DNA of 5,791 nucleotides from a virus (Duplodnaviria; Heunggongvirae; Uroviricota; Caudoviricetes), in the IMG/VR virus record IMGVR_UViG_2529292729_000022, positions 1 through 5,791 of that record, one strand, 5' to 3'. Below are positions 1-5,600 of this stretch, piece after piece. Numbering within the stretch: the first letter of the stretch is position 1; the number at the start of each line of letters is the position of its first letter. The position numbers were made by a program, and so were the translations under genes. The notes beneath the pieces were generated by a model. The model worked only from the letters and a program-made list of their open reading frames with translations. It searched no databases and had not been told where the DNA came from.

Positions 1-22
1 GTTATCAGGGAGCGGGCGATGA
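1..22 (+). CDS. H: 3' terminus of upstream tail gene, probably tape-measure protein H (partial, last 7 codons)
   Basis: Frame open from position 2 to a TGA at 20-22 that overlaps the M start as ATGA (19-22), the same 4-nt stop/start overlap I recall for lambda H/M. Too short to identify by sequence; call rests on synteny only. Confidence 0.35.
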
Positions 23-348
23 AAACATTTCGCTGGAAAGTGAAGCCGGATATGGAGGTGAACTCGCAGCCATCGGTGCGTGAAGTGCGTTTTGGTGACG
101 GGTATTCGCAGCGTATGGCGGCGGGGCTGAATGCTGACCTGAAAACATACCGTGTGACGCTTTCCGTGACCCGGGAGGAGGCCCGGCATCTGGAAGCGTT
201 CCTGGCAGAGCACGGTGGCTGGAAGGCGTTTCTGTGGACACCGCCTTATGCATACCGACAGATAAAGGTGACCTGTGCCGGGTGGTCTGCGCGGGTCGGG
301 ATGTTGCGCGTTGAGTTCAGCGCGGAGTTTAAGCAGGTGGTGAACTGA
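19..348 (+). CDS. M: Tail tip assembly protein M (lambda gpM-like), 109 aa
   Basis: ATG at 19 preceded by GGGAG (8-12). Same 109-aa length as lambda gpM, and sits directly upstream of L with stop TGA 346-348 sharing one base with the L start. Order M-L-K-I-J matches lambda. Confidence 0.88.
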   Translation: MKTFRWKVKPDMEVNSQPSVREVRFGDGYSQRMAAGLNADLKTYRVTLSVTREEARHLEAFLAEHGGWKAFLWTPPYAYRQIKVTCAGWSARVGMLRVEFSAEFKQVVN

Positions 349-1046
349 TGCAGGATATTCACGAAGAAAGTCTGAACGAGTCGGTTAAATCAGAGCAGTC
401 ACCGCGGGTGGTACTCTGGGAAATCGACCTGACGGCACAGGGCGGTGAGCGGTATTTTTTCTGTAATGAGCTGAATGAAAAAGGGGAGGCGGTCACCTGG
501 CAGGGGCGGAAGTACCAGGCATACCCGATTGACGGCAGTGGCTTTGAGATGAACGGGAAGGGCAGCAGTGCCCGCCCGTCGCTGACGGTGTCGAATCTGT
601 TTGGTCTGGTCACCGGGATGGCGGAGGACCTGCAGAGCCTGGTGGGGGCCACGGTGGTCCGCCGCCGGGTGTATGCGCGTTTTCTGGATGCGGTGAACTT
701 TGTGGCAGGCAATCCGGAGGCCGACCCGGAGCAGGAGCTGACTGACCGGTGGGTGGTGGAGCAGATGTCATCGCTGACGGCCATGACGGCCTCGTTTGTG
801 CTGGCCACACCGACCGAGACGGACGGGGCGCTGTTTCCCGGTCGCATCATGCTGGCGAACACCTGTATGTGGGATTACCGGGGAGATGAATGCGGGTATA
901 ACGGTCCTGCGGTGGCGGATGAGTTCGACAACCCCACCACGGATATCCGTAAGGACAGATGCAGCAAGTGCATGCGCGGGTGTGAGATGCGCGGCATGGC
1001 GGTCAATTTTGGCGGTTTCCTTTCCATCAATAAACTTTCGCAGTAA
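348..1046 (+). CDS. L: Tail tip protein L (lambda gpL-like), 232 aa, C-terminal cysteine cluster
   Basis: ATG at 348 with AGGTGG (335-340) 7 nt upstream. Same 232-aa length as lambda gpL and recognisable blocks such as VVLWEIDLT, GGERYFFCNE, VTWQGR, PGRIMLANTC, YRGDECGY, NFGGFLSINKLSQ. Cys at residues 173, 182, 205, 208, 212. Confidence 0.92.
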   Translation: MQDIHEESLNESVKSEQSPRVVLWEIDLTAQGGERYFFCNELNEKGEAVTWQGRKYQAYPIDGSGFEMNGKGSSARPSLTVSNLFGLVTGMAEDLQSLVGATVVRRRVYARFLDAVNFVAGNPEADPEQELTDRWVVEQMSSLTAMTASFVLATPTETDGALFPGRIMLANTCMWDYRGDECGYNGPAVADEFDNPTTDIRKDRCSKCMRGCEMRGMAVNFGGFLSINKLSQ

Positions 1047-1056
1047 ATCCTGTTTT

Positions 1057-1800
1057 ATGACACAGACTGAATCAGCGATTCTGGCGCATGCCCGGCGGTG
1101 TGCGCCTGCGGAGTCGTGCGGCTTCGTGATAAGCACGCCGGAGGGGGAACGGTATATCCCTTGTGTGAATATCTCTGCAGAGCCGGAGGCGTATTTTCGT
1201 ATCGCACCGGAAGACTGGCTGCGGGCAGAGATGCAGGGGGAGATTGTGGCACTGGTCCACAGTCATCCCGGTGGACTGCCCTGGCTGAGCGAGGCTGACC
1301 GGCGGCTGCAGATAAAAAGCGCACTGCCCTGGTGGCTGGTCTGCCGGGGTGACATTCATAAATTCCGCTGTGTGCCACATCTGACAGGACGGCGCTTTGA
1401 GCACGGGGTGACGGACTGTTACACGCTGTTCCGGGATGCCTACCATCTGGCGGGAATTGATATGCCGGATTTTGAGCGTGAGGATGACTGGTGGCGCAAC
1501 GGTCAGAACCTTTACCTGGACAATATGGCGGTCACAGGCTTTTACCGGGTGCCCCTGTCCTCTGCACAGGCGGGCGATATCCTGCTGTGCTGCTTTGGCG
1601 CATCGGTGGCCAATCATGCCGCCATTTACTGCGGCAACGGTGAACTGCTTCACCATCTGCCTGAACAACTGAGTAAACGGGAGAGGTATTCTGAAAAATG
1701 GCAACGACGAACGCATTCTGTCTGGCGTCACCGCCACTGGTCCGCATCTGCCTTCACGGGGATTTACAACGATTTGGCCGCCGCCTCAGCCTGTATGTGA
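1057..1800 (+). CDS. K: Tail assembly protein K (lambda gpK-like), 247 aa; N-terminal MPN/JAMM domain plus C-terminal NlpC/P60 domain
   Basis: First ATG after the L stop, in frame with track ORF 796..1800 (whose upstream TTG-started extension overlaps L and is rejected). JAMM motif H68-S-H70-x7-S78-x2-D81 (HSHPGGLPWLSEAD, nt 1258-1299) with upstream Glu in STPEGERY. NlpC/P60-type Cys121 in GVTDCYTLF and His187/His199 in NHAAIYCGNGELLHH. No clear Shine-Dalgarno; start is 11 nt after the L stop, so coupling or reinitiation is plausible. Confidence 0.88.
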   Translation: MTQTESAILAHARRCAPAESCGFVISTPEGERYIPCVNISAEPEAYFRIAPEDWLRAEMQGEIVALVHSHPGGLPWLSEADRRLQIKSALPWWLVCRGDIHKFRCVPHLTGRRFEHGVTDCYTLFRDAYHLAGIDMPDFEREDDWWRNGQNLYLDNMAVTGFYRVPLSSAQAGDILLCCFGASVANHAAIYCGNGELLHHLPEQLSKRERYSEKWQRRTHSVWRHRHWSASAFTGIYNDLAAASACM

Positions 1801-2378
1801 ACACGGCAGCGGAGGCCATCCGTGCCCTGTCGCTGCAGGTGCCGGGATTCCGCCGTCAGATGAACGAAGGCTGGTACCAGATACGTATTGCTGGTGAGGA
1901 CACGGCACCGGAGGCGGTGTATGCCCGCCTTCACGAACAACTGGGTGAGGGGGCGGTCATCCATATTGTGCCGCGACTGGCCGGTGCAGGGAAAGGCGGA
2001 CTGCAGATTGTGCTGGGGGCGGCAGCCATCGTGGGCTCTTTCTTCACGGCCGGAGCATCGATGGCAGCCTGGGGTGCAGCGCTGAGTGCCGGCGGTTTTT
2101 CTGCCACCACGATGCTGTTTTCACTGGGTGCCAGCATGATACTGGGTGGTGTGGCACAGATGCTGGCCCCGAAGCCAAAAACACCGGAATACAGGGCAAC
2201 GGATAACGGTAAACAGAACACGTACTTTTCGTCGCTGGATAACATGATTGCCCAGGGGAACCCGATGCCGGTGCCTTACGGTGAAATGCTGGTTGGCTCA
2301 CGGCGAATCTCCCAGGACATCAGCACCCGTGATGAAGGTGGTGGCGGGAAGGTGGTGGTTATCGGGCGGCAGGGGTAA
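1698..2378 (+). CDS. I: Tail assembly protein I (lambda gpI-like), 226 aa
   Basis: ATG at 1698, GGGAGAGG at 1679-1686. Strong resemblance to remembered lambda gpI (ARICLYGDLQRFGRR, GAEAIRAL, GWYQVRIAG, GAVIHIVPR, QIVLGAAAI, GSFFTAG, LFSLGASM, LGGVAQMLAPK, TDNGKQNTYFSSLDNM, YGEM.VGSR). Overlaps the 3' end of K by 103 nt in a different frame, as in lambda. Confidence 0.88.
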   Translation: MATTNAFCLASPPLVRICLHGDLQRFGRRLSLYVNTAAEAIRALSLQVPGFRRQMNEGWYQIRIAGEDTAPEAVYARLHEQLGEGAVIHIVPRLAGAGKGGLQIVLGAAAIVGSFFTAGASMAAWGAALSAGGFSATTMLFSLGASMILGGVAQMLAPKPKTPEYRATDNGKQNTYFSSLDNMIAQGNPMPVPYGEMLVGSRRISQDISTRDEGGGGKVVVIGRQG

Positions 2379-2383
2379 AGCAT

Positions 2384-2416
2384 AAAAAAATCCCGCAGTG
2401 TATGGAGGCTGCGGGA
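2384..2416 (-). terminator. Candidate rho-independent terminator oriented for leftward (minus-strand) transcription
   Basis: Perfect inverted repeat CCCGCAG (2392-2398) / CTGCGGG (2409-2415) with a 10-nt loop; on the minus strand the stem is followed immediately by ATTTTTTT (complement of the A7 run at 2384-2390). No T-tract follows it on the plus strand. Confidence 0.35.
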
Positions 2417-2548
2417 ACAGAAAATGAAGATTAACCACAGGGGGTTTTGTTTTTATTGGCCCGAAAAAACTGTAACGCCCGGGAATGATATCTGCCACGG
2501 GGCGTACAGAAAATGTGAAGAAATTCAGAAATTTTATTCCGTCATGAC

Positions 2549-2580
2549 ACAGGCACCCTCCGGGGTGCCTGTCGTTTTTG
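2549..2580 (+). terminator. Candidate rho-independent terminator oriented for rightward (plus-strand) transcription, about 45 nt upstream of the J start
   Basis: Perfect 9-bp GC-rich stem CAGGCACCC (2550-2558) / GGGTGCCTG (2563-2571), 4-nt loop TCCG, followed by TCGTTTTTG (T5 at 2575-2579). Confidence 0.45.
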
Positions 2581-2607
2581 GGGCATAAACAGATTCAGAC
2601 ATCAGAC

Positions 2608-2617
2608 AGGAGAGGGG
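2608..2617 (+). promoter_or_regulatory. Shine-Dalgarno region for J (AGGAGAGGGG)
   Basis: Purine-rich AGGAG/GAGGGGG 6-11 nt upstream of the GTG at 2624. Confidence 0.5.
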
Positions 2618-2623
2618 GACAGA

Positions 2624-5600
2624 GTGGGTAAAGGTGGCGGCAGGGCGCACACGCCGGTAGAGGCAAAGGACAATCTTAAGTCCACGCAGATGATGAGCGT
2701 GATTGACGCCATTGGTGAAGGGCCGATTGAAGGTCCGGTGAAGGGGCTGCAGAGTATTCTGGTGAACAAAACCCCGCTGACGGACACGGACGGTAATCCT
2801 GTGATACATGGTGTGACAGCGGTCTGGCGCGCCGGGGAGCAGGAGCAGACACCGCCGGAAGGTTTTGAGTCATCCGGCTCTGAAACCGCACTGGGCGTGG
2901 AAGTGACGAAGGCAAAGCCGGTGACGCGCACCATTACGTCCGCGAACATTGACCGCCTGCGGGTCACCTTCGGGGTGCAGTCACTGGTGCAGACCACCTC
3001 ACAGGGTGACCGTAACCCGGCATCCGTCCGCCTGCTGATTCAGCTGCAGCGTAACGGTAACTGGGTGACGGAAAAGGATGTCACCATTAACGGCAAGACC
3101 ACCTCACAGTACCTGGCGTCGGTGATTCTGGAGAATCTGCCTGAGCGGCCCTTTAACATCCGGATGGTCCGGGAGACGGCGGACAGCACCACGGACCAGC
3201 TGCAGAACAGAACGCTGTGGTCGTCATACACCGAAATCATCGATGTGAAACAGTGCTACCCGAACACGGCCATTGTGGGGCTGCAGGTGGATGCGGAGCA
3301 GTTCGGCGGTCAGCAGATGACGGTGAACTACCATATCCGCGGTCGCATCATCCAGGTGCCGTCAAACTACGACCCGGAAAAACGCACGTACAGCGGCATC
3401 TGGGACGGCAGTCTGAAACCGGCATACAGCAACAACCCGGCCTGGTGCCTGTGGGACATGCTGACTCACCCGCGCTACGGCATGGGAAAACGTCTGGTGG
3501 CGGCGGATGTTGACAAGTGGGCGCTGTATGCCATCGGGCAGTACTGCGACCAGACGGTCCCGGATGGTTTCGGGGGCACAGAGCCGCGGATGACCTTTAA
3601 TGCGTACCTGTCACAACAGCGTAAGGCGTGGGACGTTCTCAGTGATTTCTGCTCGGCGATGCGCTGTATGCCGGTATGGAACGGCCAGACGCTGACGTTC
3701 GTTCAGGACCGCCCGTCGGATGTGGTGTGGCCGTACACCAACTGCGATGTGGTGGTGGATGATAACGGCGTGGGGTTTCGCTACAGCTTCAGCGCCCTGA
3801 AGGACCGCCACACGGCGGTGGAGGTGAATTACACCGACCCGCAGAACGGCTGGCAGACCTCCACGGAACTGGTGGAAGACCCGGAAGCCATACTGCGCTA
3901 CGGGCGCAACCTGCTGAAGATGGATGCGTTCGGTTGCACCAGTCGCGGTCAGGCCCACCGTGCCGGGCTGTGGGTGATAAAGACCGGACTGCTGGAAACG
4001 CAGACGGTGGATTTCACGCTCGGGTCACAGGGGCTGCGTCACACACCCGGTGACATTATTGAAATCTGTGATAACGACTATGCCGGGACCCTGACCGGCG
4101 GACGTATCCTGTCCATCGATGCCGCCAGCCGCACCCTGACACTGGACCGTGAGGTGACCCTGCCGGAGACAGGTGCCGCCACGGTGAACCTGATTAACGG
4201 CAGCGGTAAGCCGGTGAGCGTGGCCATCACTGCACACCCCGCGCCGGACCGGATACAGGTCAGTACCCTGCCGGATGGTGTGGAGACATACGGTGTGTGG
4301 GGGCTTTCCCTGCCGTCACTGCGTCGTCGCCTGTTTCGCTGTGTCTGCATCCGGGAAAACACGGACGGCACTTTTGCCATCACGGCGGTGCAGCATGTGC
4401 CGGAAAAAGAAGCCATCGTGGATAACGGGGCCAGCTTTGAGCCGCAGTCAGGCACCCTGAACAGCGTCATCCCTCCGGCAGTGCAGCATCTCACGGTGGA
4501 GGTGAGCGCCGCTGACGGGCAGTATCTGGCGCAGGTGAAATGGGACACGCCGCGGGTGGTGAAGGGGGTGCGCTTCAGTCTGCGCCTGACCAGCGGAAGC
4601 GGAGAAGACAGCCGTCTGGTGACCACCGCCATCACCGCGGATACAGAGCACCGTTTCAGCGGTCTGCCGCCGGGGGAATACACCCTGACGGTCAGGGCGA
4701 TTAACAGTTATGGCCAGCAGGGGGAACCGGCCACCACCACGTTCAGGATTAATGCACCTGCGGTACCCGCCACGATTGAGCTGACACCGGGCTATTTTCA
4801 GATAACAGCGGTCCCGCGTCTTGCGGTGTATGACCCGACGGTACAGTTTGAGTTCTGGTTTTCGGAGACAAAAATCGCAGATACATCTCAGGTGGAAACC
4901 TCTGCCCGTTATCTGGGGACCGGCAGTCAGTGGAGTGTATCCGGCCCGCACATTAAGCCCGGGAAGGATTTCTGGTTTTACGTGCGCAGCGTCAACCTGG
5001 TGGGGAAATCTGCTTTTGTGGAAGCCAGTGGCCGGGCCAGCAATGATGCAGAAGGGTATCTGGGGCTGTTTCGGGAAAAAATAGGAAAACTGCATCTGGC
5101 TCAGGGGCTGTGGGAGCTGATAGACAACAGCCAGCTTGCGGATGAGATGGCGGAGATGAAGACCTCCATCACCGAAACCCGCAATGAAATCACACAGACG
5201 GTCAGTAAAACGCTGGAGGACCAGAGCGCCACCATACAGCAGATACAGCGCGTGCAGAAGGACACAAATGATGACCTTGCTGCACTTTACATGCTGAAGG
5301 TACAGAAAACAAAAAATGGCATACCCTATGTTGCCGGTATTGGAGCGGGGATTGAGGATACTGATGGCCAGCCCCTGAGCAACATACTGCTGCTGGCTGA
5401 CCGTATTGCGATGATTAACCCGGAGGACGGCAACAGCACGCCGTTATTTGTGGCGCAGGGGAATCAGTTGTTCATGAACGATGTGTTCCTGAAGCGGCTG
5501 TTTGCGGCGAGTATCACGTCATCCGGCAACCCCCCGACGTTTTCCCTGACGCCGGAAGGGAAGCTGACAGCCAGGAACGCGGATATCAGCGGAGCAATTA

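Follow-up and report, generated by a model that had tools for sequence, protein, structure and literature searches.

Positions 2384-2538 of the window, the 5,791-nt stretch of viral DNA analysed here, very probably constitute a small RNA (sRNA) gene that is carried as prophage cargo head-to-head with the late tail operon, while the hairpin to the right of this gene is a separate and older element. Sequence comparisons indicate that the gene is a divergent, unannotated allele of the published PasB/EcOnc22 sRNA family and that it lies antisense to the tail genes. The finding is genuine but for the most part not new, two laboratories having detected RNAs of this family before, and the main result is the correct annotation of a divergent and hitherto unannotated allele.

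The I-J spacer and its genomic setting

The window carries the lambda-like tail genes M, L, K, I and J, all on the plus strand. The features referred to in the text are the following, with the evidence for each given in brackets.

19-348, plus strand: tail gene M
348-1046, plus strand: tail gene L
about 1067-1800, plus strand: tail gene K
1698-2378, plus strand: tail assembly gene I, whose stop codon lies 6 nt before the 3' end of the sRNA (open reading frame list, RefSeq annotation)
2384-2462, minus strand: predicted sRNA of ~79 nt, a divergent PasB/EcOnc22-24 allele (PasB ends carried over by alignment, covariance model, identity)
2384-2416, minus strand: intrinsic terminator of the sRNA (8-bp stem UCCCGCAG/CUGCGGGA, 10-nt loop, U7 tail)
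2434 to 2427, minus strand: conserved single-stranded core UUAAUCUU, candidate seed (position just upstream of the terminator, conservation among alleles)
2474 to 2469, minus strand: proximal -10-like hexamer TACAGT, predicting a start at G2462 (TAnnnT in all alleles)
2490 to 2485, minus strand: distal -10-like hexamer TATCAT, an alternative -10 predicting a start near 2478
2507-2538, minus strand: conserved upstream block GAAAATGTGAAGAAATTCAGAAATTTTAT (travels with every copy of the sRNA gene)
2514-2529, centre 2521.5, no strand assigned: CRP-like site TGTGA-N6-TCAGA (conservation, unique in the window)
2549-2580, plus strand: terminator-like hairpin in the sense of the tail operon, with a 10-bp stem, the loop UCCG and a T-run (scan, fold, comparison)
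2596-2608, plus strand: CAGACAT heptamer repeat, ~2 copies, lying after the right hairpin and before the J ribosome-binding site (seen in the sequence)
2609-2626, plus strand: J ribosome-binding site GGAGAGGGGGA and GTG start at 2624 (sequence, RefSeq annotation of the identical locus, tblastn placement of the J N-terminus)

The spacer between the I stop codon (2376-2378) and the J start codon comprises 245 nt (2379-2623), while the corresponding spacers of lambda and phage 21 are both 60 nt long and lack the sRNA module; the lambda spacer was given as about 60 nt in an earlier note on this DNA, written from the sequence alone, and the difference in length is as stated there. The A+T-rich core that the same note had perceived by eye was also evident on measurement, the GC content being 0.40 at 2420-2539 and 0.55-0.67 in the genes on either side. 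As judged by alignment, the DNA that is extra relative to lambda corresponds to 2384-2538, ~160 nt situated beside the I stop codon.

A locus identical to that of the window is present in E. coli O26:H11 11368, where the RefSeq gene calls are the same and no feature is annotated in the spacer. Many O26, O103 and O157 genomes, as well as Stx1a phages, contain the 245-nt spacer at 100% identity. The spacer was matched in 786 of 5426 complete E. coli genomes, at a median of 4 places per genome, and is annotated in none of them.

Terminator and body of the sRNA gene

In the left hairpin, positions 2391-2398 pair with 2409-2416 and the plus-strand A-run at 2384-2390 provides the U7 tail of the minus strand. 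The folding energy of -13.9 kcal/mol (z = -4.0; 0 of 200 shuffled sequences folded as well) and the U7 that follows the stem uphold the minus-strand hairpin with a T-tract that the earlier note had placed at 2384-2416. The terminator scan missed this hairpin because it allows only loops of 3-8 nt. Comparison of alleles revealed that the stem UCCCGCAG/CUGCGGGA is identical in all 19 allele types aligned, with a U6-7 tail kept and a loop that varies, and the stem and U-run but not the loop were likewise constant across about 29 sRNA allele types. RNAalifold detected no covariation in the terminator among the 19 alleles, and covariation cannot lend it support since the stem never varies. No structure beyond the terminator was predicted either by RNAalifold on the 19 alleles or by folding of the sRNA body. 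Both hairpins of the spacer, whose lack of conservation in close relatives would have counted against the proposal as first made, were found again in dozens of related spacers.

Aligned with one another, the spacers of the window, of EPEC and of Sakai are colinear, and the ends of PasB carried through this alignment fall at about 2463/2462 and 2384 of the window. The 5' end of the window RNA is accordingly predicted at 2462 and could extend upstream to about 2478. A covariance model (R1) built from 16 other alleles, with every window-type sequence excluded, matched the minus strand of the window at 2384-2478, with model positions 1-94 of 94 aligned (61 bits, E = 2.9e-10), and gave no other match anywhere in the window. 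The Rfam 15 covariance models gave 0 matches at E <= 1 in the whole window. When the terminator together with the core was used as a search pattern in IMG/VR, 121 of 121 matches were located in an I-J spacer, antisense to I. Within the core, ATCTT is invariant and TTAATCTT nearly so across the aligned alleles, while the sRNA body outside the core diverges. The U-tail and the A/U-rich body of the window RNA are features consistent with Hfq binding.

The proposal that the spacer holds a moron or small-RNA insertion therefore takes a more definite form, namely a self-contained sRNA gene with its own terminator, belonging to a family whose RNAs have been detected experimentally. As expected of a moron, the segment is extra DNA that lambda and phage 21 lack at that position and it possesses a terminator of its own; as to a promoter of its own, the consensus scan gave no match, and the region has two conserved -10-like boxes together with an upstream block that is likewise conserved.

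Relationship to PasB and EcOnc22-24

EcOnc22, EcOnc23 and EcOnc24 are homologous orphan RNAs that were crosslinked to Hfq and are encoded by prophages Sp15, Sp14 and Sp11, respectively, of EHEC O157:H7 Sakai (Tree 2014, PMC4104026). On Northern blots they gave a band of ~85 nt, and they were destabilised in an hfq deletion (Tree 2014 Table S2, PMC4104026). The three CRAC peaks lie at a constant offset from the J start, at the I-J spacers of Sp15, Sp14 and Sp11. The first 23 nt of the Northern probe for these RNAs, GGGAGAGAACGATGAAGATTAAC, match exactly in the Sp15 I-J spacer, in the sense of the tail genes and adjoining the left hairpin. Since a Northern probe is complementary to its target RNA, the tail-sense orientation of the probe means that the RNA is antisense to the tail genes. 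The strand so deduced agrees with the one given in the table of Tree 2014. Taken literally, the CRAC coordinates of 2014 would put EcOnc22 antisense to the right hairpin; this placement was overturned by the probe sequence together with a shift between versions of the Sakai sequence, which differ by ~+128 nt at 1.94 Mb as determined with the AgvB1 probe, and the shifted peak falls on the Northern probe.

PasB (E2348CN_0006) is an 83-nt RNA of prophage PP6 of EPEC O127:H6 E2348/69, encoded on the minus strand (1466343 to 1466261; PMC8550237), and was seen on Northern blots with the probe AATCCCGCAGTGATCGCGGAGCT (Pearl Mizrahi, Sci Adv 2021, PMC8550237). In an hfq deletion its level changed by a log2FC of -6.8, and RIL-seq recorded 37 interactions in the form of Hfq-dependent chimeras (PMC8550237), the partners (about 37) being RNAs of both the core and the accessory genome. 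The probe AATCCCGCAGTGATCGCGGAGCT corresponds to the EPEC homologue of the left hairpin. PasB is located between gpI, which ends at 1466255, and gpJ, which starts at 1466496, so that its end at 1466261 follows the end of gpI as the sRNA U-tract of the window (2384-2390) follows the I stop codon (2376-2378). The seed proposed for PasB occupies the same position as the UUAAUCUU core of the window (Zhu, Shabalina & Storz, bioRxiv 2026), and a target motif for PasB was not reported. Both the EPEC and the EHEC homologues were expressed in uninduced cultures.

The window allele and PasB thus occupy the same gpI-gpJ slot on the antisense strand and have in common the stem UCCCGCAG/CUGCGGGA followed by U7, a length of ~80 nt, a conserved stretch upstream of the terminator and the same upstream block, while they are only 74% identical, share no word longer than 17 nt and have unlike 5' bodies. 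Because the 5' body differs, the targets of the window RNA may differ from those of PasB too. EcOnc22-24 are found at the same junction and on the same strand as the window allele, and the right half of their spacer is nearly identical to that of the window, while the RNA itself is 73% identical in the case of EcOnc22. As indicated by the probe sequences and the alignments, PasB and EcOnc22-24 are one gene family, a link that appears neither in the 2021 paper (PMC8550237) nor in the bioRxiv 2026 preprint and that should be useful to studies of riboregulation in EHEC and EPEC.

The upstream region and a CRP-like site

A scan of the window for sigma-70 consensus promoters found 0 sites, in agreement with the failure of the earlier note to recognise a convincing one, and the promoter of the sRNA is for this reason argued from conservation alone. 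Upstream of the RNA, a T-run, a TAnnnT box, a NAT(A/C)AT box and a long block are kept in all alleles, the distal box conforming to NAT(A/C)AT in nearly all of them and reading TATAAT in EPEC and several others. The proximal box fits the reported 5' end of PasB, at the end of the T-run, and may act as the promoter element. The block at 2507-2538 is assigned to the sRNA gene because it is kept in the spacer class of 340-366 nt, in which everything to its right is different, and because it is repeated with each copy of the gene in tandem arrays.

The block includes the sequence TGTGA-N6-TCAGA, which agrees with TGTGA-N6-TCACA at 9 of 10 core positions and is the only match in the window, where 0.01 would be expected by chance. 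Among 70 unique modules, 66 have invariant half-sites on both sides of a variable N6 (4 of its 6 positions vary), a pattern such as would be expected of a CRP site. With the start predicted from the proximal box as reference the centre of the site is at about -59.5, and with that predicted from the distal box at about -43.5. Class I CRP sites are centred at -61.5 and class II sites at -41.5; with either -10 box, the CRP-like site thus comes close to a canonical position without coinciding with it. PasB was higher in overnight LB than in DMEM, while Spf showed the opposite behaviour and was higher in DMEM. Spf is a CRP-repressed RNA, and the contrast is compatible with activation of PasB by CRP, an effect of growth phase or of RpoS being equally possible. 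A common upstream block with an invariant CRP-like site offers a directly testable idea on how the RNAs of this family are controlled.

The hairpin upstream of J

The stem of the right hairpin spans 2549-2572 (ACAGGCACCC/GGGTGCCTGT) and is followed by CGTTTTTGG. With -23.1 kcal/mol and z = -3.3 it ranks first among the terminator-like sites of the window, as suited the strong plus-strand hairpin and T-tract described in the earlier note at 2549-2580. The further idea that the two hairpins bracket a single cassette did not hold, since only the left one belongs to the inserted gene and the right one is also found in lambda. The 60-nt spacer of lambda and phage 21 contains the hairpin AACCGCC-TGCG/TCCG-GGCGGTT-TTGTC with a T-run; that of lambda folds at -21 kcal/mol, and in the phage 21 record OL657228 the I-J hairpin is annotated as 'terminator'. 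As in the window, it is a GC-rich stem-loop with a T-run, oriented in tail sense and placed just upstream of the J ribosome-binding site, while the stem reads AACCGCC/GGCGGTT in lambda and ACAGGCACCC/GGGTGCCTGT in the window. Tail operons of Enterobacter, Pantoea, Rahnella and Pseudocitrobacter, whose gpI is only 34-47% identical to that of the window, carry at this place a hairpin of unrelated sequence followed by T7 and the J start region.

Every spacer class compared has a hairpin with a T-run at the I-J site. Since lambda, phage 21 and distant lambdoid operons all possess one, the right hairpin is regarded as an ancestral I-J element lying outside the insertion, and these comparisons mark it as an old conserved feature of the junction. 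The PasB class shows a compensatory exchange of C-G to U-A in the stem of the right hairpin. A covariation alignment of I-J hairpins, assembled by hand by picking hairpins, yielded high pair counts, but these statistics are circular because the alignment was chosen for its hairpins. In the literature we found neither a described I-J terminator of lambda nor an experimental study of the role of this hairpin, and a conserved terminator-like hairpin before J in lambda-like tail operons represents a cheap experimental target. The CAGACAT heptamer that follows the right hairpin is present in 4 copies in L083.

Proposed mode of action and alternative readings

According to the mechanism proposed here, the promoter region at 2469-2538, with its two -10-like boxes and TGTGA-N6-TCAGA, would direct leftward transcription of the minus strand, starting at about 2462 and stopping at the intrinsic terminator (2416-2384). 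The product would be an RNA of ~80 nt with an unstructured, A/U-rich body, a terminal hairpin and a U7 tail. In the homologues PasB and EcOnc22-24 the RNA exists, measures 83-85 nt, is bound by Hfq and is destabilised without it (PMC8550237, PMC4104026). By analogy, the window allele is presumably expressed in the same manner and its RNA may be an Hfq-dependent regulator that base-pairs in trans, using as seed the single-stranded stretch upstream of the terminator with the core UUAAUCUU; the allele-specific 5' body may give it another set of targets. Transcription of the sRNA may be activated by cAMP-CRP. The right hairpin would probably stop polymerase that is not Q-modified before it reaches J, and this might include any polymerase that starts divergently from the sRNA promoter region.

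The two hairpins leave room for a different assignment of strand, in which the functional product is a plus-strand RNA of about 2496-2580 that ends at the right terminator, arises from a promoter in the spacer or by processing of the late mRNA, and uses the block at 2507-2548 as its Hfq-binding body. That block is rich in A/U and in ARN and is followed by a strong hairpin and U-run, the 86-nt plus-strand stretch folds with z = -2.9, and a conserved (A/C)AT(T/G)AT box is found at 2484-2489 on the plus strand. However, the block stays with the minus-strand gene in the 340-366 nt class, where the right hairpin has been replaced, and is repeated with each sRNA copy in arrays that contain a single right hairpin; moreover, the plus strand is without a usable -35 and no tail-sense Hfq peak or sRNA at the I-J junction is reported in EHEC or EPEC. 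On the sequence we consider such a plus-strand sRNA unlikely and give this reading a low probability. It appears still less credible, and indeed very improbable, that the spacer encodes a small protein from the open reading frame at 2424-2588 (54 aa, plus strand), either as a protein moron or as a type I toxin. An ATG-initiated frame of 54 codons is present there, its start ATGAAGATTAAC recurs in the Sakai and EPEC alleles, and an antisense RNA over the 5' end of a small open reading frame is the usual layout of a type I toxin-antitoxin system. Yet several allele groups have ACG or ACA in place of the ATG, the Sakai open reading frame has 38 codons and runs through the conserved right-hand block in another frame, the 54-aa product has no Pfam match, is not hydrophobic and is preceded by a weak ribosome-binding site, and the tandem arrays repeat the RNA module and no open reading frame. 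The protein moron was consequently rejected as a candidate, and the type I toxin-antitoxin reading likewise, because the start and frame are unconserved among alleles and no protein family is matched.

The spacer might also be nothing but a functionless, decayed remnant of old insertions in which the hairpins have been kept through recent divergence, as the mosaic nature of the junction, its many size classes and the lack of covariation in the terminator stem would allow. We consider this scarcely tenable, since the terminator stem and U-run, the core, the -10-like boxes and both CRP-like half-sites have survived in alleles of 66-77% identity, and two alleles yield abundant Hfq-bound RNAs. A question of another kind is whether the RNA acts mainly in cis or on sibling prophages as an antisense RNA rather than on host mRNAs, either by pairing with the I-J spacer of the late mRNA, leading to cleavage or altered J expression, or by promoter collision. 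Complementarity between the sRNA and the late mRNA is perfect at 2384-2462, and through its conserved core the sRNA would match late mRNAs from co-resident prophages with other alleles as well; a genome has a median of 3-4 such junctions, and transcription of the sRNA converges with the PR' operon. In RIL-seq, on the contrary, many core and accessory transcripts were partners of PasB, while the tail genes of the prophage were near-silent (base means of 5-15 reads). A mainly cis-acting RNA is therefore rather unlikely, and the cis and trans roles are not mutually exclusive. The reading that we prefer remains a minus-strand sRNA gene of the PasB/EcOnc22-24 family.

The I-J junction as a cargo site and the distribution of alleles

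The 126 I-J junctions collected from GTDB genomes and IMG/VR fell into spacer length classes of 64, ~105, 238-265, ~300, 340-366, ~680-718 and 858 nt. In the 858-nt class, sodC is encoded on the minus strand (Pfam Sod_Cu, 3.9e-32) on the upstream side of a truncated sRNA module; it takes the place of the right hairpin and of the upstream half of the sRNA gene. A Citrobacter prophage also has sodC at its I-J junction. These sodC morons resemble the window sRNA in junction and in strand, and differ from it in that their cargo is protein-coding; we found nothing specific in the literature on sodC at this junction. In Enterobacter and Pseudocitrobacter prophages the junction is occupied by a lipoprotein open reading frame on the plus strand, and two IMG/VR contigs harbor 3-4 tandem, diverged sRNA modules with just one right hairpin. 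The occurrence of sodC at the same junction identifies it as a cargo site, and with the lipoprotein gene and the tandem sRNA copies the I-J junction is a hot spot for cargo.

The census of Pas sRNAs in the bioRxiv 2026 preprint used the EPEC sequence as query with a BLAST word size of 28. The longest word that PasB has in common with the window or Sakai alleles is 15-17 nt, and such a census could therefore not find these alleles. In the 5426 complete E. coli genomes the three alleles were distributed as follows.

EPEC-type (PasB) allele: 956 genomes, 999 places, median 1
Sakai-type (EcOnc22) allele: 542 genomes, 1246 places, median 2
Window-type allele: 469 genomes, 1558 places, median 3

Carriers of the window-type allele were mainly STEC/EHEC, and EHEC genomes contained a median of 3-4 I-J sRNA copies. 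The family thus extends beyond what the 2026 census suggests, and in STEC it is present in multiple copies.

Short, prophage-encoded RNAs at a fixed cargo site are also known in AgvB and AsxR, anti-sRNAs of lambdoid prophages that bind Hfq and that, like the window family, combine a conserved 3' part with a variable 5' part and are present several times in an EHEC genome. They differ from the window sRNA in sequence and in being located downstream of Q/PR' and not in the tail operon. An identity of the window sRNA with AgvB/AsxR was rejected, their site being the PR' moron site and the Rfam models having no match in the window.

As a tentative extension, which we regard as possible and hardly as probable, the I-J junction may host a diversifying system of sRNA cassettes with a shared cAMP-CRP-responsive promoter block, which would accumulate by multiple lysogeny and tandem duplication. 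Besides PasB, EcOnc22-24 and the window allele, such a system would comprise at least one more allele group; common to all its members would be the promoter block, the terminator and a short core, while the rest of the body and possibly the targets would differ. If this were true, shigatoxigenic E. coli would have a layer of sRNAs dependent on carbon status that was missed by a census based on a single allele. The 4-copy tandem array was found in 67 of the 5426 complete E. coli genomes, mostly STEC.

Variation of the I-J spacer among related loci

The whole module of the PasB/EcOnc22-24 family small RNA (sRNA) is present in 3-4 diverged tandem copies in the I-J spacers of two IMG/VR loci, L183 and L173.

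L183, 320-1150 (IMGVR_UViG_2728369607_000007): tandem sRNA array in I-J spacer
L173, 4415-5050 (IMGVR_UViG_2698536657_000013): tandem sRNA array in I-J spacer

The repeat unit of both arrays consists of the terminator, the body, the -10-like boxes and a TGTGA-N6-TCAGA block, and one module copy of the L183/L173 arrays carries a deviating terminator stem, TCTCCCGT/ACGGGAGA. The array of four copies was found in 67 of the 5426 complete E. coli genomes, e.g. O178:H19 strain 2012C-4431.

In locus L126 and in 13 more IMG/VR loci, which form a class with an 858-nt spacer, and likewise in L031 from Citrobacter meridianamericanus, the I-J spacer carries a minus-strand sodC gene, coding for Cu,Zn superoxide dismutase. 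In the 858-nt class sodC takes the place of two elements: the right hairpin, which is the terminator-like hairpin just upstream of J, and the half of the sRNA gene that holds its promoter. This leaves a truncated sRNA module on the same strand as sodC and downstream of it, and this module might be produced as the sodC 3' UTR. The I-J spacers of Enterobacter wuhouensis (L044) and Pseudocitrobacter faecalis (L042), of about 680 nt, carry an inserted ORF on the plus strand; its product of 160-185 aa has a lipoprotein-type signal (LFISGC/LLISAC), and a Pfam match was not found for it; a terminator-like hairpin ahead of J is kept in both despite the insertion.

Many genome-contig matches (L009, L012-L026 and others) were assigned to unrelated taxa such as Streptomyces, Shewanella, Bradyrhizobium and Paenibacillus, among others. 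These are low-coverage contigs whose sequence is that of lambda or of lambdoid E. coli phages, and in most of them the I-J spacer is identical to that of lambda. They appear to reflect contamination of the assemblies by lambda DNA or by E. coli and not real prophages.

Coordinates and probe of EcOnc22/23/24

The coordinates of the Hfq-bound EcOnc RNAs of EHEC Sakai (Tree et al. 2014) refer to an older version of the Sakai sequence and lie about 128 nt below those of the current NC_002695.2 at 1.9-2.9 Mb; read literally, the 2014 positions would misplace EcOnc22-24 onto the right hairpin. The 3' part of the EcOnc22/23/24 probe is printed as TGATGAGTTA (Tree et al. 2014, Table S3C) while the Sakai genome reads GTTATGGAGTTA, the exact match being limited to the first 23 nt of the probe. 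This mismatch may have arisen through mistyping or text extraction of the supplement.

Start of gene I and region upstream of J

The I ORF of the window (226 aa, ATG at 1698) runs for about 100 nt over the end of K in a different frame (1698-1800), and lambda I likewise overlaps the end of K in another frame. At the identical locus RefSeq gives a shorter I of 193 aa beginning at the K stop, a start that may have been placed too far downstream.

In the stretch that separates the right hairpin from the J ribosome-binding site, the window carries about two copies of the heptamer CAGACAT (2596-2608) and four are present in the relative L083, indicating that the copy number is variable.
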